Shown: piece by piece, positions 4,138-64,000 of the stretch | Layout of the letters: each line of letters opens with the position of its first letter | Numbering within the stretch: the stretch's first letter is position 1 | Program-made: the position numbers and the translations under genes | The notes under the pieces: generated by a model | Told to the model about the DNA's origin: nothing | Database searches by the model: none | Seen by the model: the letters and a program-made list of their open reading frames with translations, nothing else | Source of the DNA: Escherichia coli | Lineage (GTDB): Bacteria; Pseudomonadota; Gammaproteobacteria; Enterobacterales; Enterobacteriaceae | DNA length: 64,000 nt | NCBI RefSeq assembly: GCF_044324875.1 | Contig: NZ_CP172185.1 | Direction: 5' to 3' (one strand)

Positions 4138-4148
4138 TGGATTTGCCC

Positions 4149-5054
4149 CTATATTTCCAGACACCTGTTATCACTTAACCCATTACTGGCTTGCTGCCGT
4201 AGATATTCCCGTGGCGAGCGATAACCCAGTGCACTATGCGGATGCCATTCGTTATAATGCTCGAACGCCTCTGCAAGGTTCTTTGCTGCCGTTAACCCGT
4301 CTGGTTTGGGCATGACACTGATGTAGTCACGCTTTATCGTTTTCACGAAGCTCTCTGCTATGCCGTTACTCTCCGGACTCCGCACCGCCGTGCTCTTCGG
4401 TTCAAGCCCCAACATCCGGGCAAACTGCCGTGTTTCATTAGCCCGGTAGCATGAACCATTATCCGTCAGCCACTCTACTGGAGACGCCGGAAGCTCGTTG
4501 CCGAAGCGGCGTTCCACCGCTCCCAGCATGACGTCCTGTACTGTTTCACTGTTGAAGCCGCCCGTAGTGACCGCCCAGTGCAGTGCCTCACGGTCACAGC
4601 AGTCCAGCGCGAACGTGACTCGCAGTTTTTCTCCGTTATCACAGCGGAACTCGAACCCGTCAGAGCACCATCGCTGATTACTTTCTTTCACAGCCACTCT
4701 GCCTGTATGTGCCCGTTTCGATGGCGGTACAGCAGGTTTTCGCTCAAGCAACAGCGCATTCTGGCGCATGATCCGGTAAACACGTTTGGCATTGATCGCA
4801 GGCATACCATCAAGTTCTGCCTGTCTGCGAAGCAGCGCCCATACCCGACGATAACCATACGTTGGCAGCTCTCCGATAACATGGTGTATACGGAGAAGCA
4901 CATCCGTATCATCAGTGTGACGACTGCGGCGGCCATCCATCCAGTCATCGGTTCGTCTGAGAATGACGTGCAACTGCGCACGCGACACCCGGAGACAACG
5001 GCTGACTAAGCTTACTCCCCATCCCCGGGCAATAAGGGCGCGTGCGCTATCCAC
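4149..5054 (-). CDS. insD: IS2 transposase OrfB (InsD), DDE integrase-like
   Basis: 301-aa ORF recognised as IS2 InsD; overlaps insC in the arrangement typical of IS3-family frameshift fusion. Confidence 0.9.
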
Positions 5055-5377
5055 TTTTTTGCCCGTCCATATTCAACGGCTTCTTTGAGGAGTTCATTTT
5101 CCATCGTTTTCTTGCCGAGCAGGCGCTGGAGTTCTTTAATCTGCTTCATGGCGGCAGCAAGTTCAGAGGCAGGAACAACCTGTTCTCCGGCGGCGACAGC
5201 AGTAAGACTTCCTTCCTGGTATTGCTTACGCCAGAGAAATAACTGGCTGGCTGCTACACCATGTTGCCGGGCAACGAGGGAGACCGTCATCCCCGGTTCA
5301 AAGCTCTGCTGAACAATTGCGATCTTTTCCTGTGTGGTACGCCGTCTGCGTTTCTCCGGCCCTAAGACATCAATCAT
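5012..5377 (-). CDS. insC: IS2 OrfA (InsC), HTH DNA-binding protein
   Basis: Frame beginning [40 protein letters not shown]…, 121 aa from the internal Met of ORF 5012..5422. Confidence 0.85.
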
Positions 5378-5468
5378 CTGTTCTCCAATGACTAGTCTAA
5401 AAACTAGTATTAAGACTATCACTTATTTAAGTGATACTGGTTGTCTGGAGATTCAGGGGGCCAGTCTA

Positions 5469-9395: not shown

Positions 9396-10219
9396 TGTAC
9401 TTCTCCATGCCAGGGCGTGAGGCGGCGCTGTAACGCGCGCAGACCCAGTTCTAAAAGAAAGGCGATAATCGCAATCACCGCGATCCCCGCCAGCACCACG
9501 TCAGTCGCGAGAAATTCACCCGCTGACTGGACCATAAAACCCAAACCGCGCGTCGCGGCAATCAGCTCCGCCGCCACCAGGGTAGACCAGCCCACACCCA
9601 GACCAATGCGTAATCCGGTGAGAATTTCCGGCAGCGCACCGGGCAAAATAACAAACCACAGCACCTGCGCACGGCTGGCACCCAGCGACTGGGCGGCACG
9701 AATGCGAACCTGCTGCGCGCTTTTCACCCCCGCCAGCGCCGACATCGCCACAGGTGCAAAAATCGCTAAATAGATCAGTAAGATCTTCGAGGTTTCACCA
9801 ATACCAAACCAGATCACCATCAGCGGCAAATACGCCAGCGGCGGCACCGGGCGATACAATTCAATTATCGGATCCAGAATGCCGCGCACCGTCGGGCTTA
9901 GCCCCATGGCGATCCCAACCGGAATGCCGATCAACACCGCCGCAAGTAGCGCCAGCACAATGCGCGTCAGGCTGGCTGCCAGATGCTGCCACAGGGTGGC
10001 GTCCATAAATCCCTGCGGCCCGGCAATGGTGAGCAGTTTTGCCAGTACCTGTTGCGGTGGCGGCAAAAACAGCGGGCTAATCAGGTGCAGCGCCGCGACT
10101 GCCCACCATACAGTGAGCAAAACCGCTAACGTGCCAATGCTTAAGGTCACCTGACGCGAGAGCGGCCAGCGCCATTTCAGCCGATGCGAATGCAGTTTTT
10201 CATTAATGAGCACACTCAT
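9392..10219 (-). CDS. tauC: Taurine ABC transporter permease
   Basis: 275-aa polytopic membrane protein; overlaps tauB stop and tauD start. Confidence 0.9.
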
Positions 10220-49637: not shown

Positions 49638-50309
49638 ATGATGAAGTTACTTCACTTATTTATGGATGAAATCACTATGGATCCTTTGCACGCCGTTTAT
49701 CTGACCGTAGGACTGTTCGTGATTACTTTTTTTAATCCGGGAGCCAATCTCTTTGTGGTAGTACAAACCAGCCTGGCTTCCGGTCGACGCGCAGGAGTGC
49801 TGACCGGACTGGGCGTGGCGTTGGGCGATGCATTTTATTCCGGGTTGGGTTTGTTTGGTCTTGCAACGCTAATTACGCAGTGTGAGGAGATTTTTTCGCT
49901 TATCAGAATCGTTGGCGGCGCTTATCTCTTATGGTTTGCGTGGTGCAGCATGCGCCGCCAGTCAACACCGCAAATGAGCACACTACAACAACCGATTAGC
50001 GCCCCCTGGTATGTTTTTTTTCGACGTGGATTAATTACCGATCTCTCTAACCCGCAAACCGTTTTATTTTTTATCAGTATTTTCTCAGTAACATTAAATG
50101 CCGAAACACCAACATGGGCACGTTTAATGGCCTGGGCGGGGATTGTGCTCGCATCAGTTATCTGGCGCGTTTTTCTTAGTCAGGCGTTTTCTTTGCCCGC
50201 TGTGCGTCGTGCTTATGGGCGTATGCAACGCGTTGCCAGTCGGGTTATTGGTGCAATTATTGGTATATTCGCGCTACGCCTGATTTACGAAGGGGTGATG
50301 CAGCGGTGA
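49638..50309 (+). CDS. yahN: LysE/RhtB-family amino-acid exporter
   Basis: 223-aa polytopic membrane protein. Confidence 0.8.
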   Translation: MMKLLHLFMDEITMDPLHAVYLTVGLFVITFFNPGANLFVVVQTSLASGRRAGVLTGLGVALGDAFYSGLGLFGLATLITQCEEIFSLIRIVGGAYLLWFAWCSMRRQSTPQMSTLQQPISAPWYVFFRRGLITDLSNPQTVLFFISIFSVTLNAETPTWARLMAWAGIVLASVIWRVFLSQAFSLPAVRRAYGRMQRVASRVIGAIIGIFALRLIYEGVMQR

Positions 50310-50325
50310 GCAGATAATTTACTCT

Positions 50326-50571
50326 CTACGTAATCAACCTGATTTGCCAAATCCCGGTCATCGGCGATGATAGCCCCCGTAATGCGTGGTCCTTATTTCC
50401 GATAAGTTTACTTGAGTCTTTAGCTTCCCATTTCAGCCCACTCTCCCCTGTATGGGCTTTTTTCATTGCTCTGACCCGCCCTGAATAGCCAAACAATGGC
50501 AATGTTTCACTTTGCAGGGATGATAATAAGGGGAGCTGATTCAGAAGAGTTATGAAAAGTTGGACCGCCAT
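50326..50571 (-). CDS. yahM: Small hypothetical protein YahM
   Basis: 81-aa frame from the internal Met of ORF 50326..50601; assigned by position and length only. Confidence 0.45.
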   Translation of the reverse strand: MAVQLFITLLNQLPLLSSLQSETLPLFGYSGRVRAMKKAHTGESGLKWEAKDSSKLIGNKDHALRGLSSPMTGIWQIRLIT

Positions 50572-50983
50572 CGAGGCCTCGAACCCCGTACCATACAACA
50601 ATCCTGGTTGTCGTCTGCTCTTCCTGATGAGCTAATGGCGGTTTTTGATATGAGCCTTACAGCATATTTTCTGTCAGGCTTGAGTGCGATGCGTAAGGTA
50701 CAGAAAAGACCCCACACAAACATGATGGAATTATGATTTTTTTCATATGAATGTCAACCCACACATTCACAAAACACCTGCATGAGATCATTTTTTATAC
50801 ACCACATAGCTGCAAAACTACTACTGGTGATTTTTTAAGCGAAGCGTCGCCGATCACAACAAAATATCGGCGAAAAAGGCGGTGGAATGCCATTTGGCAT
50901 ACGGATATACAGATGAAATGATCACCTGCTTTGCGATTCACTCTCTGCTGGAATAACAACTTGCAGGTGGAACCCTTTCTGAA

Positions 50984-51799
50984 CTAAAGAGTGTAGCGGA
51001 TTTTAACGTGCTTATTTACAGGATAATATCTGTCACCTAATTCCTGCACTCTATTCGATATCCATTCGTTTAATCGCGCATCATCTCTGTATGTTTTTAC
51101 GTCCAGAACAGAGAGCAATAACATCACCAGCGATTCAGGAAAAACAGGGTAGATATTTTTTAAGTGTAATAATAATCCATGCGCAAGCGCCTGCTTAATT
51201 GGTGCGTCGCTCTCCGGAATAGACGACATTTCGCGAAGCCATTTTTCCACATGCATACACTCTTTCCCTTTAGGGAAAAGTCTCAGTAAAGGCATATGGT
51301 GTTCAAGAAGAATACATTTGCAATCTGTTCGCACTGAATCGATAAACTGCACTAATTTCTTAAGCCCGGTAAAGCGTCCAGCCTGCACATTTGCTTTAAT
51401 ATCAAGAAACGCATCATCCTGGTCATATACCCAAACTGTCCCTTTTTGATTTTCAAGTATGCGAAAAACAAACTTAACCGGGTAATCAGGGTAATCCATC
51501 CAGTCATAAAATCCCGGGAAATCATTAAACTGTACATTTATGGTAAGTGCGTTATCGTCTGACCACTCACAGTCTCGTACGGCAGCCATGAGATGAATGA
51601 GTTTGTCATCATCGACTAAATCATCACGACAATCATAAGGATAATCATAATATTGTTTAATCAAAACCTTGAATATATCGACACAGGAAACCAGGGAGCT
51701 TTTGATATCCTCCGGTAACTGATTGTTTTTAACCGTATTAAGTATGCTTTGTTGCGTATATGGCATCAAATTATTGTACGGAGCTTTTAATGATATCAT
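50984..51799 (-). CDS. yahL: Hypothetical protein YahL
   Basis: 271-aa ORF in AT-rich DNA; assigned by position and length; no recognisable domain. Confidence 0.65.
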   Translation of the reverse strand: MISLKAPYNNLMPYTQQSILNTVKNNQLPEDIKSSLVSCVDIFKVLIKQYYDYPYDCRDDLVDDDKLIHLMAAVRDCEWSDDNALTINVQFNDFPGFYDWMDYPDYPVKFVFRILENQKGTVWVYDQDDAFLDIKANVQAGRFTGLKKLVQFIDSVRTDCKCILLEHHMPLLRLFPKGKECMHVEKWLREMSSIPESDAPIKQALAHGLLLHLKNIYPVFPESLVMLLLSVLDVKTYRDDARLNEWISNRVQELGDRYYPVNKHVKIRYTL

Positions 51800-52041
51800 C
51801 GCGATCTCTCTTAAATAAAAATAAACGTCGCAGATAATAAAGCCCTGATTAAACCAGGCACTATCAGAAATCGCTCATAACTAACGTATGAAGTATTGTG
51901 TCCTGGAGGGAGTTAATTTAACAATTTGAATTTACGTTATAGGTTTTACCGCTACTTTGATATTATTTCGCTCTCCTTAACTAAAAAGTTAAGTGGAGAG
52001 CGAAGTTAATATGTTAAACCACAGGGTATTTATTAATTGTT

Positions 52042-53091
52042 TCAGTCTGTTAGTGTGCGATTATCGATAACAAAACGATATTTCACATCTCCTCGCAGCA
52101 TTCGCTCATAGGCTTCATTAATTTGATCGGCCCGAATCATCTCTATATCAGCCACGATGCCATGTTCGGCGCAAAAATCGAGCATCTCCTGTGTTTCTGG
52201 AATGCCGCCAATCATAGAGCCGGCTATCGCGCGGCGTTTCATGATCAGGTTGAAAACTTCCGGCGATTTATGCGGTGTCGCAGGCGCACCAACCAGCGTC
52301 ATGGTGCCATCGCGCTTCAGCAAGGTGGTAAAATCGTCGAGATTATGTGGCGCAGCTACTGTATTCAAAATGAAATCGAAACTCTTCAGATGAGCCGCCA
52401 TCTCATCGGCATTGCGTGAGTTAACAACTTCATCGGCCCCCAGGGCTTTTGCCGCTTCGCGTTTTGCCTCAGAAGTGGTAAATGCCACCACATGTGCCCC
52501 CATCGCGTGGGCCAGCTTAATCCCCATATGTCCCAGACCGCCGATGCCAACCACGCCCACTTTTTTACCCGGCCCGGCCTGCCAGTGACGTAGCGGCGAG
52601 TATGTGGTGATCCCTGCACACAATAAAGGAGCCACCGCCGCCAGCTGCTCTTGCGGGTGACGAATACGCAGAACATATCGCTCATGAACGACGATCTGTT
52701 GTGAGTAGCCGCCCAGCGTATGGCCCGGTTCGTCCGGCGTCGGCGAGTTATAGGTGCCGGTCATGTGATCACAGTAGTTTTCCAGCCCGTCTTCACACTC
52801 TTCGCAATGTTTACAACTGTCGACAATACAGCCGACACCGACCAGATCGCCCGTCGCATGTTTTTCTACCTGATCACCAACGGCTACCACACGCCCCACA
52901 ATTTCATGACCCGGCACGCAGGGGTAAACCGTCCCCGCCCACTCGGAACGGACCTGGTGGATATCGGAATGGCAGACGCCACAGTAAGCGATTTCAATTT
53001 TGACATCATGCGGTCCCGGTTCACGCCTGGTAATATCCATCGGTTCCAGCGGTTGCGTCGCGGAATAAGCACCAATAGCCTTGATATTCAT
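52042..53091 (-). CDS. yahK: NADPH-dependent Zn-type aldehyde reductase / alcohol dehydrogenase
   Basis: 349-aa frame from MNIKAIGAYSATQPLEP…; GHEIVG catalytic Zn motif, Cys cluster CKHCEECEDGLENYC, Rossmann GIGGLGH. Confidence 0.9.
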   Translation of the reverse strand: MNIKAIGAYSATQPLEPMDITRREPGPHDVKIEIAYCGVCHSDIHQVRSEWAGTVYPCVPGHEIVGRVVAVGDQVEKHATGDLVGVGCIVDSCKHCEECEDGLENYCDHMTGTYNSPTPDEPGHTLGGYSQQIVVHERYVLRIRHPQEQLAAVAPLLCAGITTYSPLRHWQAGPGKKVGVVGIGGLGHMGIKLAHAMGAHVVAFTTSEAKREAAKALGADEVVNSRNADEMAAHLKSFDFILNTVAAPHNLDDFTTLLKRDGTMTLVGAPATPHKSPEVFNLIMKRRAIAGSMIGGIPETQEMLDFCAEHGIVADIEMIRADQINEAYERMLRGDVKYRFVIDNRTLTD

Positions 53092-53362
53092 TGCATTCAC
53101 TCCTGTTCGAAGAGGTATCTGGATGATGTGAGGAACGTCTTTGCAGCAAAACTCGCTCATTCAATATAGCCAATGAATGGTTGCCCGTGATGGGCTCTGA
53201 GACGTTGATACCGGAGAGTTTAATGACCAATAGTGGTGTCGTTTTTCGTGGCAGATCACACTTTCTGGCACCAGCGATATCCCTTTTCCGCCTTAAAACC
53301 GGGGCGGTATCGTGACTGGCGAATTAGACTGCCGTGAAATTCAATTATTACGCACACGCCGT

Positions 53363-54010
53363 TTACCCCGCAAAAGAAACACGCAATAACTTTAACTGCC
53401 CGTTAATCATGCCAAATTCCAGTATAGTTGTGCCATCACAAACAGCCGGTGGAATTTGTTCATTAGCCTGCGAACCAATATTCAGCGTAATGCCATCGTC
53501 AGAAATATTCCCCGACATCGCCAGTTCACATATTCCCGTGACGTAGTGGCGCTCCCCTTTCTCTTCGTAATAGAAACGTCCATCATTGAGGGGATAATAT
53601 TTTCTTTTTTGCTCCGCTGGCGTCAGCGAATGACTGAGATAATCATCAATCCATTGGGTACCCGGATGTATCGTGAATTTTGTGACATTATGCAGACGCC
53701 GCATAATGGTTTCTGAATGGCGATCAAATAGTGCTTCTGTGAAGGGTTCAGATTCAGGCAACTCAATCTCAGCGAGAAAGCCGAAATAGGTATCGTAGGG
53801 GAATTTTAAGAAGGTTTTTAGTTTCGTGGCATTCTTTGCACTCAGCGCTTGCTGAAACTTTTGCAATTGCGTTAAGGCATCTTTTTTCTGCTCCGGCGTG
53901 ACCAGGGGCTGTATGCGCACCGCCTCGCATTCGTGTTGTGAATTTCCAGCAGGGCAAGTTGCCAGGACGGCCTGACTCAGAAACAACAGCGATAACCAAA
54001 GAAATTTCAC
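53363..54010 (-). CDS. Hypothetical secreted/periplasmic protein (no name assigned)
   Basis: 215-aa ORF with signal peptide MKFLWLSLLFLSQAVLA and four Cys in the mature part; sits between yahK and yahJ. Confidence 0.5.
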   Translation of the reverse strand: MKFLWLSLLFLSQAVLATCPAGNSQHECEAVRIQPLVTPEQKKDALTQLQKFQQALSAKNATKLKTFLKFPYDTYFGFLAEIELPESEPFTEALFDRHSETIMRRLHNVTKFTIHPGTQWIDDYLSHSLTPAEQKRKYYPLNDGRFYYEEKGERHYVTGICELAMSGNISDDGITLNIGSQANEQIPPAVCDGTTILEFGMINGQLKLLRVSFAG

Positions 54011-54129
54011 GGCGTCTATCCATCCCTGGATAAAAAAGATAATCCGCAGTGTACGTCATGGGCAAAACGCAGAGGATATCGGGTTTTAAAATCGGAATAG
54101 TGCCTGCCCGGATATCCTCGCTGATAACG

Positions 54130-55508
54130 TTACACCACACTCCCCCACACCAGTTGTCCTTTATGGAACGTTGCCGTTCTCGGCGAGATACGCGCCACCG
54201 CCTCGGCGGAACAGGAGGCGTCCACCAGCACAAAACTGGCGTCATCCTGCGCTTTGGGCCACACGCGCTCGCCTTTTTCATTCAGCGGCAATACATCGCC
54301 AGTGGCTAAAAACAGCGAACGGGACAAATTCTGTTCGTTAGGGCGAATATAGAGCTGCGCGTACAGATTGGCTTTTTCCAGCATGTCGCCCAGGCCATAA
54401 GGTGACCAGTGGTCAATAACGCTGTCAGTTCCGGTCATGACTTTTACGCCTTTGTCGTGCAACTGTTTGAGCGGCATATGCAGCGTGCCAATCGGCACCG
54501 TCGAGGCGATAGAAATTTGCTGCGCCGCCATCCGGTGCGCCAGTTCATCTACCTGTTGTTCGTTGAGCGTTGCCAACGCAAAGGCGTGACTGATGGTCAG
54601 CTTGCCCTTCAGCTGTGGCGTTTTCTCTACCGTTTCAACCATATAATTGATGGCTGCCACACCTGCCGGAGTGGTTTCGTGCAGGTGAATATCGACGCCT
54701 TTGTCGTAGTCCAGCGCAATCTGAAACATGGTGTCGAGGGATTTTTCCATCGCGCCATCAACACTGGTTGGGTCCAGCCCGCCGACGTAATGCGCGCCCG
54801 CCTGCATCGCTTCACGCATTAAGGGTTCTGATTTCGACAGCAGCAAACCGTGCTGCGGGAAGGCGACGATTTCACACTCGAAGCCCGCCTGACGTCGCGC
54901 CAGCACCGCCTGCAAATTTTGCAGATTTTTCAGGCCGGAAACCGGTTCGATATTGCAGTGGCTGCGGGCAATGGTGGTGCCTTTCGACTGCAATAAATCG
55001 ATCAGTTTTTCCGCTCGTTCCTGAGTGTACGGTTGCAGCTCCGGCAGCATTTTCTGCTCGAGTTTGATCATGTCCTGGATGGTGGTCCTGCCGGGCGATT
55101 GAGCGAGCGCCACGGCCCGCCGTAAAAGGTTTTGTCGAGATGAATATGCATGTCGCGGGTGGTGGGCAGCATCAGCTTACCGCCAGCGTCATAGTGCGGC
55201 AGCGTGGCGTCCGGATGCTGCTTGTTCTCGCGCAGGGCAACAATTTTGCCGTTCTGAATCTCTACGGTCTGGTGCGCCGTGCGGGTCTGTACCGCCACAC
55301 CGTTTTCGTAGTCAAAACCGGTTTCCAGCAGCACGTTGTCGAGATAGTAGTGCGGGTCAGTGATTTTCATGGTGTTATTCGCGTCGCAGTTTAGGGTGCC
55401 AGAGACTGCCGCATGGGCGAGCGGCACAGAGGTACCAAACAGCGCGGCGGCGGTGACCATCTTACAGCTCTGGCTCAGAAACTCACGGCGGCTATTGTTT
55501 TTTTTCAT
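54130..55508 (-). pseudogene. yahJ: Tat-signal amidohydrolase/deaminase YahJ, split by an apparent frameshift
   Basis: ORFs 55068..55508 (146 aa, Tat motif SRREFL) and 54130..55113 (327 aa) overlap by 46 bp in different frames and together cover one amidohydrolase-length gene. Confidence 0.7.
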
Positions 55509-55517
55509 CTTACGTCC

Positions 55518-56468
55518 TTACGTTTTAATAATATGTGTGCCTGTTTCACCGCGCAGCGCCGCAGGCAGGCATTCCGGCGTGGTGATAATCACTTCTTTGC
55601 CGCCCTGCTCCAGGAACGTCAGGCTGGCGATGATTTTTGGCAACATGCTGCCAGGCGGGAAATGCCCTTCCTGCATATAGCGGGTCATGGTGGCAATATC
55701 CACCCGATCCAGCGCCTGCTGCTGCGGCTTGCCAAAGTGAATACACACTTTTTCGACGCCGGTGGTGATCACCAGAATGTCGGCGTGAATTTCACGGGCC
55801 AATAGCGCGGTAGAGAGATCTTTGTCGATAACCGCGTCCACGCTTTGGTAATCCCCCGCTTCACTGCACACCACCGGAATTCCACCGCCGCCCGCGCCAA
55901 TCACCACAAAACCTTGTTGGATCAGCGCCTTAATGGCAGGTGCTTCGACAATACGTTTCGGTTCCGGCGAGGCGACCACGCGGCGATAGCCCCGTCCGGC
56001 ATCTTCAACAAAACGCCAGTCAGGGTTTGCCTTTTGTAATTCGTCACGCTGGCTTTCACTGAAGAATGCGCCGATGGGCTTGGTGGGATGAGCAAATCCC
56101 GGATCGTTTTTATCCACTTCCACCTGAGTCACCACGGTGACGGCTTTTTTCTCGCCGTGACGCGCCAGTCGGTTATTCAGCGCCTGTTGGATCAGGTAGC
56201 CGATGCCACCTTGCGTATCCGCCACACAGTTCGCCAGCGGCGTTAAGGGCAGCCCTTCGCGCTCGTGGGCAATCTCCGCACGGCGTAAATCCAGCCCGAC
56301 CTGCGGCCCGTTGCCGTGGGTCAGCACAATGTCGTAATCGGAAGCCAGCATTTCCAGCACCGTATCGGCGACGGCCTTCACCGCCTCCGCCTGATGCTCA
56401 ATCGACTGGCTGGCGTTATCTTTGATAATGCTGTTGCCACCAATGGCAACGACCACAAGTTCTTTCAT
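55518..56468 (-). CDS. yahI: Carbamate kinase-like protein
   Basis: 316 aa; amino-acid kinase fold (MKELVVVAIGGNSI…). Confidence 0.9.
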   Translation of the reverse strand: MKELVVVAIGGNSIIKDNASQSIEHQAEAVKAVADTVLEMLASDYDIVLTHGNGPQVGLDLRRAEIAHEREGLPLTPLANCVADTQGGIGYLIQQALNNRLARHGEKKAVTVVTQVEVDKNDPGFAHPTKPIGAFFSESQRDELQKANPDWRFVEDAGRGYRRVVASPEPKRIVEAPAIKALIQQGFVVIGAGGGGIPVVCSEAGDYQSVDAVIDKDLSTALLAREIHADILVITTGVEKVCIHFGKPQQQALDRVDIATMTRYMQEGHFPPGSMLPKIIASLTFLEQGGKEVIITTPECLPAALRGETGTHIIKT

Positions 56469-56494
56469 GTTGTTATGTCCGCTACAGAGGGTGA

Positions 56495-56705
56495 TGGGGT
56501 TATGACCAACGCCAGACTGCCTGATGCGCTACGCTTATCAGGCCTAGAATTCTCGTGCCATTCGTAGGCCGGATAAGGCGTTCACGCCGCATCCGGCAAT
56601 GGTGACAAATGCCTGATGCGCTACGCTTATCAGGCCTACAGATTCTCGCGCCACTCGTAGGCCGGATAAGGCGTTCACGCCGCATCCGGCAGAGACAACG
56701 CGCAC
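56495..56705. repeat. REP/BIME elements between yahI and yahG
   Basis: Two copies of CCTGATGCGCTACGCTTATCAGGCCTA…CGTAGGCCGGATAAGGCGTTCACGCCGCATCCGGCA. Confidence 0.85.
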
Positions 56706-56713
56706 TTTGCAGG

Positions 56714-58132
56714 TCAGACGCCGTAACGTTCGCACCAGCCAAGAATGGCTTTCTCGAAGCAGGCGAATGGTGGATGCACAATGCCCGCGCCAATCATGCC
56801 GACGCCCGCATCTTTATGGGCGATGGCGGTGTTGATCACCGGCAGAATGCCGCTACTGCCCACGCGGGTTATGTCGATTGCCGACGGCACGCCCATAAAA
56901 CCGAGCAGCGGAATGGTGACGTTGGGATTTTCGCCGAGAGTGATTTCGCGCATCTGGCGGGAGAAATCGATGGCCTCTTCCACCGTACCGCCCACCAGCG
57001 CGACGATTGCAGGCGCGGTCGCCATAGCAAATCCACCAATGCCGTAGGTTTCGGTGATGGCGCTGTCGCCAATATCCAACCCAGAATCTTCCGGCTTATA
57101 ACCGGCAAACATCGGGCCGATGACCTGCTGCGCCGGACCGGTAAACCATTGCCCCGGTAATCCGCTGACCCGCAGGCCGAACTCGACGCCGTTACGCGCC
57201 ATGGTGGTCACCACAGTGCTGTATTCGATGCCGTGCGCCGCATCCATCGCCGCTTTACACATCGCCATCCACGTCGGGCCGGAGAAGTAGTCACTGCTGG
57301 CGACAAACTCAAACACTTCGCGCTGTTGCTCGACGGAGTAGCCCGCCTGAATAATCCCCGGCGTCAGCGCCTGAATCAGCAGCGTCGTCCCGGCGTTATT
57401 GCGGTTATGGCACTCATCGCCCATATGCAGCGCCTGCGCCAGCATTAAGCGCAGATCGATCTCGCCGATAATTTTCATCGCATCGCGCAGCATTGGCCCC
57501 TGCACATCACGCATCCAGTTGAGTCGGTCGATCACGCTCTGGTCGTTAGCGCCCATACGCAAAATCTTTGCCATCTGCTCGCTCATATTGGTGTAAGCGA
57601 TGTTGCCGTAGGTTTTGTTTTTCACGATGTGCATAAACATCGAGGCCGAGGTAACACCCGCCATCGATCCCACGCAGTCATGTTCGTGGCACGGCGAGAA
57701 GGTGATCTCCCCGGAGGCCGCCAGTTCAGCCGCCTCATCGAGATCTTTCGCCAGCCCTTCGAACACCAGCGCTCCGGTGACCGCGCCTTTCATCGCGCCA
57801 CACATTTTTTCCCAGGTGATCGGCGGTCCGGCGTGAAGAATGGTTTTCGGCGTCATACCCGGCACCACGTTAATCGCCTGATCAAAACCAATCAGCACCG
57901 GATGCGACTGGATAATGCGCTCCAAAGCCTGCTGGTTAGCGGCGGCGATTTTGTCTGCCAGCGGCGAATCGGCAATGTTATCCAGCGCCTGCACCACCTG
58001 CATATTGCCCTGCCCCGGCGGCGTCCAGTCGAGTTGAGTCACTTCTACATGCTGCTTTTTCAGGTCATCGCTAAACATGGCGATGCCGACGTTAATAACG
58101 TTCAACGGTTGGCTAAACAGTGACTGGCTCAT
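56714..58132 (-). CDS. yahG: DUF1116 family protein YahG
   Basis: 472-aa ORF immediately downstream of yahF. Confidence 0.8.
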   Translation of the reverse strand: MSQSLFSQPLNVINVGIAMFSDDLKKQHVEVTQLDWTPPGQGNMQVVQALDNIADSPLADKIAAANQQALERIIQSHPVLIGFDQAINVVPGMTPKTILHAGPPITWEKMCGAMKGAVTGALVFEGLAKDLDEAAELAASGEITFSPCHEHDCVGSMAGVTSASMFMHIVKNKTYGNIAYTNMSEQMAKILRMGANDQSVIDRLNWMRDVQGPMLRDAMKIIGEIDLRLMLAQALHMGDECHNRNNAGTTLLIQALTPGIIQAGYSVEQQREVFEFVASSDYFSGPTWMAMCKAAMDAAHGIEYSTVVTTMARNGVEFGLRVSGLPGQWFTGPAQQVIGPMFAGYKPEDSGLDIGDSAITETYGIGGFAMATAPAIVALVGGTVEEAIDFSRQMREITLGENPNVTIPLLGFMGVPSAIDITRVGSSGILPVINTAIAHKDAGVGMIGAGIVHPPFACFEKAILGWCERYGV

Positions 58133-59679
58133 CAGGCTTCCTCCCCTTTGCAGATAAATTCACGCGCCAGCAATCCGGTATTGGTGCTGCTGCTTGCCAG
58201 AATTACCCCAGCATCAAGCAGCATCTGGCTTTGTTGTTCTAATGATGGCGTATCAAGATCGGTACCCAGCACATAGGCGAGAATGATCAACTCACGTCCT
58301 TCGGCAGCGGCGATCGCTTTCGCTTCTTTGATCGCATCGATGGTGGAGCCGACCGGATCTTCATGCGATCCAAATCCGAGCACAAAATCCATCACGATCA
58401 CCGCCACTTCTGGATCGCGCGCTTCTTCGATCAAGCGACTGATGCGGTTGGTCGGGTCAATCATTGGATGCGGCTTGCCGTTGGTGAAGTCGTCATCACC
58501 AAAGTCGAGGAAGGTGTGTTTGATGCTGCGGCTGATATCTTGCAGGCGGAATTCCGGATCGGGCTGAATGTTGCTGTAGACATCGCCGTGTTTTTCCATC
58601 ACCGCGAACATCGTTTCGTCGCACAGCGTGCCGCCGCAGAACAGGCCACGAATGTATTTCTGTTGCGGTTGCAGGCGAGCGCGCACGTCAGCAATCAATG
58701 GCTGGTTCAGGGTATGCAGGTCGAGATGTTCTTGTTTCACACCGGAGAGCATCACCGCTTTTAGTGCCGCCTCTTTGGTGCCGCGAGCAAACTGTAGCCC
58801 CTGCTCATCCACTGGCGTTTCGCCACGACCGAGGAAGCAGACTACCACTGGCTTACGGCAGGCGCGTGCGCGTTCCAGCACTTTGCGGGCCACCGCAGGC
58901 GCTGGCGGTTTGGAGATAAGCACAATGATTTCAGTTTGCGGATCGTTTTCCAGCATCCCGATGGCGTCGAGCATCATCAGGCCGCCGATTTTCTCGCTCA
59001 GGTCGCGCCCGCCGGTGCCGATCAGTTGCGAAACGCCGCCGCCAAATTCATGAATGCGGACGCTCAGCTCCTGGCTGCCGGTGCCGGATGCGCCAACAAT
59101 ACCGATGTTGCCGCGACGCACGGCGTTACCAAAGCAGAGCGCCGCGCCGTTGATAATCGCCGTACCGCAGTCTGGCCCCATCATCAGCAGCCCTTTTTCG
59201 TGGGCCAACTGTTTGAGCGCCAGTTCATCTTCAACTGAGACGTTATCGGAAAACAGCATCACTTTAAGATCGTTTTGCAGCGCCTGACGCGCTTCGCGAG
59301 CGGCAAACAGACCGTTGACCGAAATCACCGCCAGGTTACTTTCCGGGATATGCTTTTTGGCGCTGGCAATAGTGGCATAGCGTGCTTCATGTGAACCAGT
59401 TTGAGCTTTGGTGTTGAACAGTTCTTCAATCTCCACCAGCAACTGCTCGTTGTCCGCACCCGATTTACCATTGATGACAATCATCAGGTCACCGTTTTTC
59501 GCCTGCTCCAGTTCCGGCGTCAGCAGTCCTAAATTCTTCAGCACACCTTTGTTCATTTCGGTCGCCATCGCCACAAATGCCTGCTCGACGCCGTCGAGTT
59601 TATTTGCACGCGTGGAGATAGACATCAGCGAGACAGAATCAAAATAGGTATTCGGTTTAATGACTATTTTAACTGACAT
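58132..59679 (-). CDS. yahF: FdrA-like acyl-CoA synthetase (CoA-binding, succinyl-CoA-synthetase-alpha-like)
   Basis: 515-aa ORF; Gly-rich CoA-binding segments. Confidence 0.85.
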   Translation of the reverse strand: MSVKIVIKPNTYFDSVSLMSISTRANKLDGVEQAFVAMATEMNKGVLKNLGLLTPELEQAKNGDLMIVINGKSGADNEQLLVEIEELFNTKAQTGSHEARYATIASAKKHIPESNLAVISVNGLFAAREARQALQNDLKVMLFSDNVSVEDELALKQLAHEKGLLMMGPDCGTAIINGAALCFGNAVRRGNIGIVGASGTGSQELSVRIHEFGGGVSQLIGTGGRDLSEKIGGLMMLDAIGMLENDPQTEIIVLISKPPAPAVARKVLERARACRKPVVVCFLGRGETPVDEQGLQFARGTKEAALKAVMLSGVKQEHLDLHTLNQPLIADVRARLQPQQKYIRGLFCGGTLCDETMFAVMEKHGDVYSNIQPDPEFRLQDISRSIKHTFLDFGDDDFTNGKPHPMIDPTNRISRLIEEARDPEVAVIVMDFVLGFGSHEDPVGSTIDAIKEAKAIAAAEGRELIILAYVLGTDLDTPSLEQQSQMLLDAGVILASSSTNTGLLAREFICKGEEA

Positions 59680-60160
59680 AATTCCCTCCGTAGGTTTGGC
59701 TCAGCGCACAACCATCGGCCATGCCATACAGCATGTCGCAGCCGGAACTGGAGCCAATATGTTTAATTTTTTCTATTGCCTGGGTTGAATTCCCAGGGAC
59801 ACCATAAATAATATCGTGAATAAAATGATGAATATTTTCCCGGCAGCGTTGTTGTAATGCGGCTTCCAGCGTTATGGCACTTAATAACGTGGTATTATTT
59901 CTGCCGCGTTGCAGACCGATATAAAATTCCTCTTTGTATTTTTCCGCCGGATGTCCGGAAATAAATAAAATAAGCGCCAGACCTGTTAAATAATCATCGG
60001 CTGATGGCGTAAGGCCAATCCCTAACCCCATCATACTGGCGACCGCTAAGGCGATATTTTTTTTATCGTTTACTTCCTGAATAACTGCCCGTCGTTTAAT
60101 ATGTAATTCTTTATTTAACGCCTGATAAAACGGATTATCGCCGCGATAATTAAACAGGGT
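59669..60160 (-). pseudogene. yahE: YahE-like (DUF2877) gene, 3' portion only; 5' end replaced by IS1
   Basis: Frame stays open without a start codon from the IS1 boundary at 60160 down to the stop at 59669 (…TLFNYRGDNPFYQALNKELHIKRRAVIQEV…MMGLGIG…); overlaps the yahF start. Confidence 0.65.
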
Positions 60161-60175
60161 GGTAATGACTCCAAC

Positions 60176-60679
60176 TTATTGATAGTGTTTTATGTTCAGA
60201 TAATGCCCGATGACTTTGTCATGCAGCTCCACCGATTTTGAGAACGACAGCGACTTCCGTCCCAGCCGTGCCAGGTGCTGCCTCAGATTCAGGTTATGCC
60301 GCTCAATTCGCTGCGTATATCGCTTGCTGATTACGTGCAGCTTTCCCTTCAGGCGGGATTCATACAGTGGCCAGCCATCCGTCATCCATATCACCACGTC
60401 AAAGGGTGACAGCAGGCTCATAAGACGCCCCAGCGTCGCCATAGTGCGTTCACCGAATACGTGCGCAACAACCGTCTTCCGGAGCCTGTCATACGCGTAA
60501 AACAGCCAGCGCTGGCGCGATTTAGCCCCGACATAGCCCCACTGTTCGTCCATTTCCGCGCAGACGATGACGTCACTGCCCGGCTGTATGCGCGAGGTTA
60601 CCGACTGCGGCCTGAGTTTTTTAAGTGACGTAAAATCGTGTTGAGGCCAACGCCCATAATGCGGGCAGTTGCCCGGCAT
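60176..60679 (-). CDS. insB: IS1 InsB (transposase C-terminal frame)
   Basis: 167-aa ORF recognised as IS1 InsB. Confidence 0.9.
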
Positions 60680-60873
60680 CCAACGCCATTCATGGCCATA
60701 TCAATGATTTTCTGGTGCGTACCGGGTTGAGAAGCGGTGTAAGTGAACTGCAGTTGCCATGTTTTACGGCAGTGAGAGCAGAGATAGCGCTGATGTCCGG
60801 CGGTGCTTTTGCCGTTACGCACCACCCCGTCAGTAGCTGAACAGGAGGGACAGCTGATAGAAACAGAAGCCAC
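60598..60873 (-). CDS. insA: IS1 InsA (transposition repressor)
   Basis: 91-aa [46 protein letters not shown]…. Confidence 0.92.
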
Positions 60874-60928
60874 TGGAGCACCTCAAAAACACCATCATAC
60901 ACTAAATCAGTAAGTTGGCAGCATCACC

Positions 60929-61270
60929 AGAGATTTACCAACTGCTGAAGCGGAAATATCTCGCGTGCAGGCGTCTATTATCAAATGGTATGCGTCAGAA
61001 TACCATAATGGCAGGCAAGTTCTCGATGAGATACAAACGCCTTCAGCAATTAACAGTGAGCTTTATACAAAAATGATATATCTGACCAGGAACTGGTCAT
61101 TGTATCCGAACGGTGATGGCTGTGTAACTATAAGCTCACCAGAAATAAAAAATAAATACCCTGCTGCCATTTGCCTGGCTCTGGGATTTTTTCTAAGCTT
61201 TGTAATTTCTGTAATGTTTTGCCTTGTCAAAAAAATGGTAGATGAATACCAACAAAACTCTGGGCAGTAA
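60929..61270 (+). pseudogene. 3' fragment of a membrane-protein gene (ykgH-like by position), 5' end replaced by IS1
   Basis: Frame open with no stop from the IS1 junction at 60929 to the stop at 61270; C-terminal hydrophobic helix (AAICLALGFFLSFVISVMFCLV). Confidence 0.4.
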
Positions 61271-61512
61271 TAAACAGCATTCTGATAGAGAGTGCCTGTA
61301 TAAAGCTGAAGTGACAATGACCGGGAAGGGAACCCGTTTTCAGGAATGGATGCCTGTCTTTTTCACTGTAAATATCCTGGCATTACTAATGCCAGGATAT
61401 TTACAGAAGAGCAGCATAACCATGACGGAACGGGGTTAAGTCAGGTTGTCCTTAACGCTATTCACAACCTCGTATGCCGACTTCAGGTTTATGTCCAGAC
61501 TTCATATCTCTC

Positions 61513-62208
61513 TCAGCAATCCTCAATAATCAGATACACCGCTTTCACCGGGCCATGAACCCCGACGACTTTGATAAGCTCAATATCCGCCGTTGAACTA
61601 GGGCCGCTAATGATGTTAATGCAGGACGGCATTCGTTCACCGGCCTGCGCTTTCTGATGCAATTTTTCTGCGAGTTGCGCTACACGCGGCAGGATTGTGC
61701 TTTTACGCAGGATAAAAAGAGAAGATTCCGGGAGCAGGCTCAATGAACGCCCGCGCCCGGCGGCGGAAAAAAGAACCACGCCTCCCGATTCGGTTAAACC
61801 ATATTCAGCATACACGACACCCACTTTAGCCTGCTCTGCTTGTGATATGTTCTCAATACCTTTCGCCGGATCCCAAACAACGGCATTGCATTCCTGCTGC
61901 AAACGTTCGCTAATCCCCAATTCCTCCAGCCTCGTGTCACCGCTAATCACGACCGACTGATCTCCCAGCTCTTTACACAGACGTATTGCAGCTTCTGCCG
62001 CCTTCGCCTCGCTGGTCAGTTCACAGCGCGTCAACATAACATCGCTGGCAAACTGAATAAACGCGTCACAACGCTGCTGTTGGGTAAGTTGGGTAAGCCG
62101 CTCGTTAGCATAGTTGTTAAGCGGCGCATCTTCTGCTTGCGGTTCAAGTCGCAGCGGGCGACCCAGTGCCTGAGCAACGTTATTCAAAAATTCGCTCCGA
62201 TTATCCAT
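61513..62208 (-). CDS. ykgG: LutC-like lactate-utilisation protein
   Basis: 231-aa frame from MDNRSEFLNNVAQALGRPL…; start 2 bp from the ykgF stop. Confidence 0.85.
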   Translation of the reverse strand: MDNRSEFLNNVAQALGRPLRLEPQAEDAPLNNYANERLTQLTQQQRCDAFIQFASDVMLTRCELTSEAKAAEAAIRLCKELGDQSVVISGDTRLEELGISERLQQECNAVVWDPAKGIENISQAEQAKVGVVYAEYGLTESGGVVLFSAAGRGRSLSLLPESSLFILRKSTILPRVAQLAEKLHQKAQAGERMPSCINIISGPSSTADIELIKVVGVHGPVKAVYLIIEDC

Positions 62209-63628
62209 TCTTTTTCTCCTGCGCCTGATGTTTCTTAAACCAACTACGGAAACTCTCTCCGTCAGCTTCAGGAAGATCGCGTGCTTCCATCCAGTCGCTA
62301 ATCGCGCCAAATTTGAGTGGTGTTTTGCCGCCATTGATAAACCAGCTTGCCGCATGAGCACCAGCCATCATCCCGACTTTCCACAATCCTGGATGACTAT
62401 TGGCATAAGCGAACATTTTTATCGCCCGTTGCTCTGCTTTTGCGGTGATCCCTTTTTCAGCCATCACCCGACGATGACGCAAAATCAGTTTTGACAGCGG
62501 AATACGCACCGGACACACGCTGTCACAAGCGGTGCATAAAGAGCAGGCGTAGGGTAAATCTTTAAAATCTTTATAGCCGCCAAGTAGCGGAGAAATCACC
62601 GCACCAATTGGCCCTGGATAAATAGAGCCATATCCATGACCGCCAATATGGCGATATGCCGGACAAGTATTCATACAAGCCCCGCAGCGAATACAGCGCA
62701 GCACATCCCGAAATTCAGAGGCCAGCACCTCAGAACGCCCGTTATCGACAATAACCAGATGAAACTCTTCAGGACCATCAACGTGCCCCGCTTCGCGCGG
62801 TCCTGTCAGCCAGGTGTTGTATCCCGTCAAACGTGCACCAACGGCACTGCGCGCCAGCATGGTGATCAATACATCTACCTCGGCAAACGTGGGGGCAATA
62901 CGCTCCATTCCCATCACTGCAATATGCGTTTTAGGCAGCGTGGTACACATTCGCGCATTACCTTCATTGGTCACCAGGCATACCGAACCGGTCTCTGCCA
63001 CCGCGAAATTACAGCCGGTAATACCTATTTCAGCACTGAGGAAATCTTCGCGGATTTTTTGCCGGATGAATAAGGTCATTGCTTCAGGCGTTTCCGACCC
63101 CTCATAGCCCAGACGTTCGTGTAGCACCCGACGGATCTGATGGCGATCTTTATGAATTGCCGGGACCACAACATGAGAGGGCGGATCTTGATCCAGCTGG
63201 AGAATGTATTCACCCAGATCGGTTTCAATCACCTGAATGCCAGCATCCTGCAACACATGATTGACACCAATCTCTTCGGTCACCATCGATTTAGATTTCA
63301 CCACCTTCCGGGCATTTTTGCGTTGGGCAACCTGTAAAATGTAGCGAGTGGCGTCTTCTTTAGTTTTTGCAAAATAGACGTGACCGCCGTTTTGCGTCAC
63401 TTTTTCTGAGAGCTGGTACAGATAAGCGTCGAGATTACTCAGAACATGATCACGTATCTGGGCGGCCCGATCGCGCCACTCCTCCCAGTGCCCCAATTCA
63501 TCGACCATTTTTTGCCGATTTGCCCCGATACGCTGCTGCGCGTTTGCCACCGCTTTGCGCATGATCGGATCTTCAATTTGCTGACGGATGCGTGTCTTAA
63601 AATCTGTATTACTGGTTTTGATCGACAT
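62201..63628 (-). CDS. ykgF: LutB-like iron-sulfur protein (4Fe-4S ferredoxin-type)
   Basis: 475 aa; Cys clusters CIRCGACMNTCP and CSLCTACDSVCP. Confidence 0.9.
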   Translation of the reverse strand: MSIKTSNTDFKTRIRQQIEDPIMRKAVANAQQRIGANRQKMVDELGHWEEWRDRAAQIRDHVLSNLDAYLYQLSEKVTQNGGHVYFAKTKEDATRYILQVAQRKNARKVVKSKSMVTEEIGVNHVLQDAGIQVIETDLGEYILQLDQDPPSHVVVPAIHKDRHQIRRVLHERLGYEGSETPEAMTLFIRQKIREDFLSAEIGITGCNFAVAETGSVCLVTNEGNARMCTTLPKTHIAVMGMERIAPTFAEVDVLITMLARSAVGARLTGYNTWLTGPREAGHVDGPEEFHLVIVDNGRSEVLASEFRDVLRCIRCGACMNTCPAYRHIGGHGYGSIYPGPIGAVISPLLGGYKDFKDLPYACSLCTACDSVCPVRIPLSKLILRHRRVMAEKGITAKAEQRAIKMFAYANSHPGLWKVGMMAGAHAASWFINGGKTPLKFGAISDWMEARDLPEADGESFRSWFKKHQAQEKKNG

Positions 63629-63638
63629 CTTTATATCC

Positions 63639-64000
63639 TCAGCGGCTCATCAGCACTTCAGCAATATGCATTACTTTGACTTTCTGCCCTTCCCGTTGTA
63701 ATCGCCCACTGATGTTCAGCAGGCAACTCACGTCAGCACCAATTAAATACTCAGGGCGGACTTCCATCAGGTGCGCAACCTTTTCTTTCACCATCTCGCC
63801 GGATATTTCGGCCATTTTGACCGAGAACGTGCCGCCAAATCCGCAGCAGGTATCCTGTTCAGCAAAGGTCAACAGCTCCAGTCCACGCACATTTTTCAGC
63901 AGCATAAGTGGCTCGTCCTTCCCCCCCAGCTTACGGGCCAGGCTACAAGATGGGTGATACACCGCTCTCCCTTGCAAACTGGCACCTACATCGACTACCC
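63639..64000 (-). CDS. ykgE: LutA-like Cys-rich (CCG-domain) protein, 3' part; gene continues past window end
   Basis: C-terminal 112+ residues with CCGFGG motif; frame open to position 64000. Confidence 0.8.
   Translation of the reverse strand, partial: VVDVGASLQGRAVYHPSCSLARKLGGKDEPLMLLKNVRGLELLTFAEQDTCCGFGGTFSVKMAEISGEMVKEKVAHLMEVRPEYLIGADVSCLLNISGRLQREGQKVKVMHIAEVLMSR

Follow-up and report, generated by a model that had tools for sequence, protein, structure and literature searches.

A single IS1 element bridges an 11,260-bp deletion of the bet genes and their neighbours in an Escherichia coli chromosome

In the 64,000 nucleotides of E. coli DNA analysed here (the window), one IS1 element stands in place of 11,260 bp of chromosome, and we hold with high confidence that this is a real, IS1-associated deletion. 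The loss of these 11,260 bp from the lineage is a recent and ordinary transposon-mediated event of a textbook kind, and it accounts for a difference in gene content in one E. coli clone. The features at and around the junction are as follows; L034 is an undeleted relative represented by the draft genome GCA_050232825.1.

58132–59679, minus strand: yahF (fdrA-like), 515 aa, intact; first complete gene to the left of the deletion
59669–60160, minus strand: yahE remnant, codons 125–287 plus stop; exact suffix of L034 YahE
60152–60160: left 9-bp flank of IS1, AAACAGGGT
60161–60928, minus strand: IS1, intact, 768 bp; located by end probe, open reading frames and profile search
60161–60183: IRR, terminal inverted repeat of IS1
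60176–60679, minus strand: insB′, 167 aa, open, overlapping insA
60598–60873, minus strand: insA, 91 aa, open
60906–60928: IRL, terminal inverted repeat of IS1
60929–60937: right 9-bp flank of IS1, AGAGATTTA
60929–61270, plus strand: ykgH remnant, codons 110–222 plus stop; exact suffix of L034 YkgH
61513–62208, minus strand: ykgG, 231 aa, intact; first complete gene to the right of the deletion

A 54-nt IS1 end probe was unique in the window, with 0 chance matches expected, and the copy at 60161–60928 is the only one present. The probe and the open reading frames bore out the 768-bp element that an earlier, sequence-only reading had placed at these coordinates. Its termini, GGTAATGACTCCAACTTATTGAT and GGTGATGCTGCCAACTTACTGAT, agree at 18 of 23 positions and form imperfect inverted repeats of about 23 bp. 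The A6C motif for −1 frameshifting between insA and insB′ occurs once, as AAAAAAC in the sense orientation at position 307. InsB′ matched the NCBIfam IS1 transposase profile NF033558 with 145.6 bits (profile positions 75–199) and InsA with 91.3 bits (positions 1–81), the cut-off of this profile being 100 bits; InsA also matched NF050000, the IS1/IS1595 zinc-binding domain. The element is 99.48% identical to IS1A-type copies of other E. coli, and judged by its sequence it is apparently complete and functional.

Simple insertion of IS1 produces a direct target duplication of 8–10 bp, usually 9 bp. No 9-bp duplication was found when 60152–60160 was compared with 60929–60937. AAACAGGGT and AGAGATTTA differ, and the element is therefore not a simple insertion, as had already been concluded from its unlike flanks. 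The IS2 of the same window has a normal 5-bp duplication.

The genes on either side of IS1 had been described as truncated at their 5′ ends at the IS1 boundary, and both proved to be exact in-frame suffixes of the full-length genes. The translation of 59669–60160 corresponds to the last 163 residues and stop of the 287-aa YahE of the relative, a product of the AllH family (DUF2877; Pfam PF11392 AllH on record). The 124 N-terminal codons (the 5′ 372 nt) are lost, and the longest open reading frame left in the remnant encodes 121 aa, with its ATG at 60034. The translation of 60929–61270 corresponds to the last 113 residues and stop of the 222-aa YkgH, 109 codons (the 5′ 327 nt) being lost. Each of the two truncated frames reaches a stop five codons into IS1, and hence no fusion protein is formed. 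Since yahF overlaps the yahE stop, it has lost its upstream gene together with any promoter upstream. Exact-protein look-ups of YkgF and YkgG returned 17,471 and 29,118 blocks, too many to be informative. The YahF or BetB alleles of this lineage occur in about 210 index blocks.

When the window was aligned to K-12, the sequence through 60160 ended at K-12 position 336297 and the sequence from 60929 started at 325037; the K-12 block absent from the window is 11,259 bp (NC_000913.3 325038–336296). In undeleted genomes the two flanks keep their order and orientation but lie apart, and each breakpoint matches an IS1 end to the nucleotide. Against the draft genome GCA_050232825.1 the window shows 100.000% identity in flanks of 2,434 bp and 3,072 bp, the left match extending to 8,029 bp, and deleted and undeleted members are separated by 0 substitutions in about 11 kb. 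Between the two breakpoints this genome has 11,260 bp, comprising the 5′ part of ykgH, betA, betB, betI, betT, pdeL, yahB–D and the 5′ part of yahE; yahV, a small gene annotated in K-12, lies in the same interval. All four bet genes fall within the deleted interval and so are gone from the chromosomal locus. Had the ancestor of the lineage carried the hyx island, located between ykgH and betA, some 17 kb would have been deleted; judged by GCA_050232825.1, it did not carry the island.

These alignments support the IS1-mediated deletion that had been suggested from the sequence: the breakpoints lie exactly at the IS1 ends against both K-12 and the 100%-identical relative, and the relative still carries the block. 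The genes named as lost on the basis of K-12 gene order (yahD, yahC, yahB, yahA/pdeL, betT, betI, betB, betA and the 5′ part of ykgH) were all confirmed; the proposed size of about 13 kb has to be reduced to 11,259 bp against K-12, or 11,260 bp against the closest relative. We found no genome in which intact yahE adjoins ykgH without bet genes, and in the nearest relative they lie between the two.

Neither exact junction was found among 5,426 complete RefSeq E. coli genomes; the best identities there were 97.4% for the yah side and 99.3% for the lac region. Because of this absence the junction is usable as a clone-specific PCR marker. The left junction, from truncated yahE into IS1, was also present in assembly GCA_958308375.1, as well as in a Logan contig recovered from 10 sequencing runs; the change is therefore inherited within the clone. 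Nothing was on record for the predicted right-junction products of truncated ykgH, of 101 aa and 65 aa. Our literature searches found no paper on ykgH together with IS1, and for deletions from betT to yahE only an engineered reduced genome.

We consider an IS1 adjacent deletion, by intramolecular or abortive transposition, to be the most likely route, and rate it as somewhat probable. An ordinary IS1 copy would have inserted into one AT-rich gene, ykgH or yahE. One end of this IS1 would later have attacked the second of the two sites, within the same chromosome, in an intramolecular or abortive transposition, and the DNA between the two sites would have been excised. Of its two original junctions, IS1 would then have retained one and exchanged the other for a new one, for which reason the 9-bp flanks would be unlike. 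An abortive-transposition model has been invoked for IS1 deletions (PMC10569738). Proven IS1 targets of other strains lie 6–13 bp from the breakpoints, an observation in keeping with adjacent deletion.

Exactly the same final structure would arise if IS1 had inserted independently, with like orientation, into yahE, where it duplicated AAACAGGGT, and into ykgH, where it duplicated AGAGATTTA, and if RecA-dependent recombination between the two copies had then removed the block together with one IS1, leaving one hybrid IS1. This route is distinctly possible, although on balance we doubt it. Both the flanks and the extent of the deletion are just what it would produce, and both genes are repeatedly targets of IS1 elsewhere, including in this orientation and 6–13 bp from the breakpoints. 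Recombination of this kind has been recorded for IS1 in the long-term evolution experiment (PMC4173774). Three events would nevertheless be needed, yet deleted and undeleted members differ by no substitution in about 11 kb; the lack of substitutions therefore favours the two-event route of insertion and deletion. No genome or assembly with the single or the double insertion was found, an argument of little weight since draft assemblies break at IS1. The same reservation applies to what speaks against adjacent deletion: a progenitor carrying just one IS1, exactly at one or the other of the two junctions, was not found among the 5,426 complete genomes, and the predicted products of single insertions (138 aa for ykgH::IS1, 135 aa for yahE::IS1) were not on record.

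We judge it very unlikely that the structure is an assembly artefact, produced from a genome in which two IS1 copies enclose the bet block but were merged into one during assembly, with loss of the block. IS1 is a well-known source of collapsed repeats, and independent assemblies confirm the left junction only, not the join. However, the 64 kb run continuously through IS2 and IS1, as is typical of long-read or finished assemblies, and no assembly on record contains the product expected where a retained 5′ fragment of yahE abuts IS1. The structure is also biologically ordinary, since five complete genomes from four lineages carry IS1-bridged deletions of this interval that arose independently. 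There is practically no chance that the window represents an ancestral empty site and the bet-yah block a gain in other strains, a reading for which nothing was found and which is refuted by the block in the relative with identical flanks, by its presence in at least 5,039 of the 5,426 complete genomes, and by the truncation of both neighbours in mid-frame exactly at the IS1 ends.

In nearly every E. coli genome the block is single-copy, with a median of one place per genome, and 10 of its 5,482 places are on plasmids. Almost the same interval has been deleted independently, with IS1 bridging the gap, in five complete genomes from at least four other lineages. In 20409, WP2-S18-ESBL-08/MLI105, YZMc10-2 and 873.10, as in the window, IS1 connects the yahD/yahE side with the ykgH/ykgG side, betTIBA and pdeL are lost (10.3–11.4 kb), and there is no target duplication; in 20409, too, yahE and ykgH are both 5′-truncated. 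The breakpoints of the window differ from those of all four lineages, as the K-12 coordinates (yah side/ykg side) show:

Window: 336297/325037
20409: 336603/325198
WP2-S18-ESBL-08/MLI105: 336701/325508
YZMc10-2: 335079/324746
873.10: 335461/324684

Two of the four other lineages have IS1 in the opposite orientation or another IS1 variant. The ykgH-side junction of YZMc10-2 is that of a widespread simple ykgH::IS1 insertion, whereas no such progenitor was found for the lineage of the window. In other strains, simple IS1 insertions with 9-bp duplications lie at a distance of 13 bp (left breakpoint) and 6 bp (right breakpoint). The patches around the breakpoints have a GC content of 32–46%, as against 53–62% for the bet operon between them, and IS1 favours AT-rich targets.

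It could be that ykgH–yahE is a zone of recurrent IS1 deletion, in which loss of bet–pdeL has been repeated and favoured in some niches rather than being neutral decay, although we regard this as unlikely. The idea rests on two AT-rich clusters of IS1 targets that bracket bet–pdeL and on the at least five independent lineages seen; candidate benefits would be loss of PdeL-dependent c-di-GMP control or of an unused choline pathway. A census with an 8.5-kb bridging query found such deletions in 7–8 of the 5,426 genomes, and because they are so rare an IS1 hotspot is only modestly supported; the first matches for it were moreover subject to ascertainment bias.

Only the bet genes provide an endogenous conversion of choline to glycine betaine, and their loss gives a testable prediction of phenotype. 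For the chromosomal bet locus, within the 64-kb window, the gene content predicts that choline would not be taken up via BetT nor oxidized to glycine betaine, and that choline-dependent osmoprotection would be lost. The PdeL c-di-GMP phosphodiesterase/regulator would likewise be missing, as would YahB, YahC and YahD, whose functions are poorly known; yahE and ykgH are disabled alongside them. YahE would be inactive, leaving the putative YahEFG enzyme, which is paralogous to AllFGH, one subunit short. The transposase genes of IS1 are transcribed toward the yahE remnant and yahF, and transcription of yahF–yahG–yahI would probably occur only by read-through from IS1 in this same direction.

IS-associated gene loss is familiar from the ‘black hole’ deletions of Shigella, for example that of cadA, and here too an Escherichia lineage has lost a metabolic or stress locus through an IS element. 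Unlike in Shigella, however, lacIZYA is full length, the 64 kb contain only two IS elements, and nothing indicates pathoadaptive loss. The genome is not one undergoing Shigella-like decay. A Shigella origin, considered in view of the IS1 and of the absence from the E. coli genome set, was likewise rejected: besides lacI, lacZ, lacY and lacA, almost every other K-12 gene of the window has its full length, and IS elements number only these two.

A close parallel in structure is provided by the classical adjacent deletions mediated by IS1, which Reif and Saedler reportedly described in the gal region in 1975. There, as here, one IS1 stands at the junction, the breakpoints lie at the IS ends, target duplication is absent, and the loss of adjoining genes is on the kilobase scale; the differences are the locus, here ykgH to yahE, and that the anchored end is in our case deduced. 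The abortive-transposition model has also been applied to nfsB and capsule deletions (PMC10569738). In the long-term evolution experiment (PMC4173774), IS-mediated deletions arose by recombination between two copies; as in the window, one IS1 was left, the interval between two insertion sites was lost, and the lost genes were dispensable in the prevailing niche. The window differs in coming from a natural rather than a laboratory lineage, and in that the two-copy intermediate was not observed. The deletion described here thus adds one more natural case of IS1 shaping gene content, by a mechanism that is not new.

The junction is formed by a complete IS1 lying between the remnants of two genes, which were compared with their full-length counterparts in a near-identical relative:

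60161-60928: IS1, complete, 768 bp
60598-60873, minus strand: insA, 91 aa
60176-60679, minus strand: insB', 167 aa
59669-60160, minus strand: yahE remnant, an exact match to the C-terminal 163 of the 287 YahE residues
60929-61270, plus strand: ykgH remnant, an exact match to the C-terminal 113 of the 222 YkgH residues

The terminal inverted repeats of the element match at 18 of 23 positions, its A6C frameshift motif is present in a single copy, and InsB' exceeded the NCBIfam threshold set for IS1-family transposases. A 54-nt probe of the IS1 left end matched once in the window (chance expectation 0), and blastn with the element detected no second IS1, full or partial, in the 64 kb. The 9-bp sequences outside the ends, AAACAGGGT and AGAGATTTA, differ as the sequence-only reading had claimed, so the element lacks the target duplication that marks a simple IS1 insertion. 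Unlike this IS1, an IS2 at 4138-5468 has a regular 5-bp target duplication, TTCAG; it is 98.1% identical to K-12 IS2A and interrupts the yaiT-equivalent autotransporter gene, which in K-12 carries an IS3 at another site.

Both remnants are exact C-terminal suffixes of the full-length proteins, in agreement with the earlier description of two 5'-truncated genes abutting the IS1. Pfam (PF11392) and RefSeq product names place YahE in the AllH family (DUF2877). Both frames reach a stop five codons within IS1 and thus encode no fusion protein, and the longest ORFs left in the remnants are 121 aa from an internal ATG (yahE) and 101 aa from an internal GTG (ykgH). An A8 run in yahE (window ~60057-60064) is A7 in the undeleted GCA_002467655.1 (~9950-9960), splitting yahE there, perhaps through a genuine frameshift, perhaps through an error in sequencing the homopolymer.

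The left flank aligned to K-12 MG1655 (NC_000913.3) up to 336297, within yahE, and the right flank picked up in the same orientation at 325037, within ykgH. The 11,259-bp K-12 interval between these breakpoints contains the ykgH 5' end, betA, betB, betI, betT, yahV, pdeL (yahA), yahB, yahC, yahD and the yahE 5' end. As yah-side identity to K-12 was only 95.5%, a closer reference was sought by exact-protein look-up with the window YahF and then the BetB of the lineage, yielding contig ABYWRS010000002.1 of GCA_050232825.1. This contig was 100.000% identical to the window over 8,029 bp on the left (52132-60160) and 3,072 bp on the right (60929-64000), and holds 11,260 bp between the two breakpoints, a block in which the genes are ordered as in K-12 and the hyx island is absent. 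Alignments to K-12 and to this relative both break at the IS1 ends, supporting the proposal of an IS1-mediated deletion. The gene content proposed for the missing block was correct; the proposed size of ~13 kb was ~1.7 kb too high. Since a relative with identical flanks still carries the block, the deletion is a recent one in the window lineage, whose immediate relatives retain it.

The yahE'-IS1 junction was also found in GCA_958308375.1 (100% identity over 50000-60287, including 127 bp of IS1) and in a Logan contig from 10 sequencing runs (100% over 57410-60187). Because short-read contigs end inside IS1, these two independent sources confirm the left junction only. Neither exact junction occurs in any of the 5,426 complete RefSeq E. 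coli genomes, among which the window lineage, on record only in draft assemblies, is not represented. Among the same genomes the best identity was 97.4% for the yah flank (52000-60160) and 99.3% for the lac region. The ykg side (60929-64000) shows 98.2% identity to K-12 and up to 99.3% to other loci retrieved; set against it, the lower yah-side values suggest that the yah allele of the lineage is divergent and possibly recombinant. Elsewhere the window runs collinear with K-12 336-396 kb; the source is thus an ordinary lactose-operon-bearing E. coli; a decaying, Shigella-like genome was rejected, as nearly all window genes, including lacI, lacZ, lacY and lacA, are full length.

GC content at the breakpoints is 42-46% (yahE) and 32-40% (ykgH), forming AT-rich patches around a bet operon at 53-62%. 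Four independent simple IS1 insertions, each with a proper 9-bp duplication, lie nearby in ykgH or yahE (distances are to the breakpoint on the side given):

ET201: left side, 13 bp away; duplication CGCCGCGAT
MIN12 group: left side, about 120 bp away; duplication CTCTATATG
GTEN_97: right side, 6 bp away; duplication TACCAACTG
SCEC020022 group: right side, about 290 bp away; duplication TGCCTTGTC

IS1 thus seems to favour both genes as targets, and this context makes two routes to the deletion plausible. By adjacent deletion, an IS1 already resident in ykgH or yahE would attack another site in the same molecule; the DNA between the sites would be lost, one original junction retained and one new junction made. 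This model has been applied to IS1-associated nfsB and capsule deletions (PMC10569738). Alternatively, two IS1 insertions in the same orientation could have recombined to leave a single copy, as depicted for an IS1 deletion in PMC4173774. The observed flanks and the 11,260-bp loss are expected under both routes, so sequence alone does not separate them. Recombination would need three events, against two for adjacent deletion, and not one substitution was seen between the deleted and undeleted relatives in ~11 kb. Single- or double-insertion intermediates were not found among the 5,426 complete genomes or by predicted-product look-ups, a weak negative against recombination. On balance we favour adjacent deletion as the somewhat probable route, and regard recombination between two copies as a reasonable but less probable one.

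From known gene functions, loss of betTIBA would abolish BetT-mediated uptake of choline and the oxidation of choline to glycine betaine; external betaine, taken up via ProP/ProU, should still give osmoprotection. The block is single-copy in E. coli generally, and the absence of bet was seen at this locus, within the 64-kb window. Loss of pdeL would remove a c-di-GMP phosphodiesterase/transcription factor, and yahE is presumably inactivated. The IS1 transposase genes face yahE'-yahF, so that residual transcription of yahF-yahG-yahI would need read-through from IS1. In the same cluster, the amidohydrolase gene yahJ (54130-55508, minus strand) is frameshifted into ORFs of 146 and 327 aa. The identical frameshift in the undeleted GCA_050232825.1 makes this pseudogene older than the deletion, and indicates that the yah cluster was already decaying. 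The yahJ-yahK spacer (53105-54135) is about 1 kb, compared with 371 bp in K-12, and contains a 215-aa minus-strand ORF (53363-54010) whose N-terminus resembles a signal peptide and for which no Pfam hit is recorded. In the yahG-yahI spacer (yahH region of K-12), an ~82-bp repeat occurs twice in tandem at 56518-56691; it cross-matches several positions in K-12 and relatives and looks REP-like.

IS1-bridged yah-ykg joins were found in five further complete genomes, representing four independent events with 10.3-11.4 kb lost, different breakpoints and no target duplication; the first list of examples was biased to breakpoints near the window's own:

WP2-S18-ESBL-08 and MLI105: 87-nt yahE remnant, IS1, intact ykgH; ~11.2 kb lost
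20409: yahE', IS1 (opposite orientation, 96.4% variant), ykgH'; ~11.4 kb lost
YZMc10-2: intact yahD, IS1, ykgG; ~10.3 kb lost
873.10: yahD', IS1B, ykgG; ~10.8 kb lost

The flanks are brought close together in only 7-8 of 5,426 genomes (census with an 8.5-kb bridging query); at least 5,039 retain no less than 80% of the block, and 162 show no trace of it. Loss of the block is therefore uncommon but recurrent. The ykgH-side junction of YZMc10-2 is that of a widespread simple ykgH::IS1 insertion, so that the progenitor state is visible in that lineage. No description of an IS1-mediated deletion at the ykgH-yahE locus was found in the searchable literature. The deletion matters locally, for understanding the biology of this clone and for typing it; otherwise it is ordinary, a new instance of the thoroughly known process of IS1-mediated deletion.
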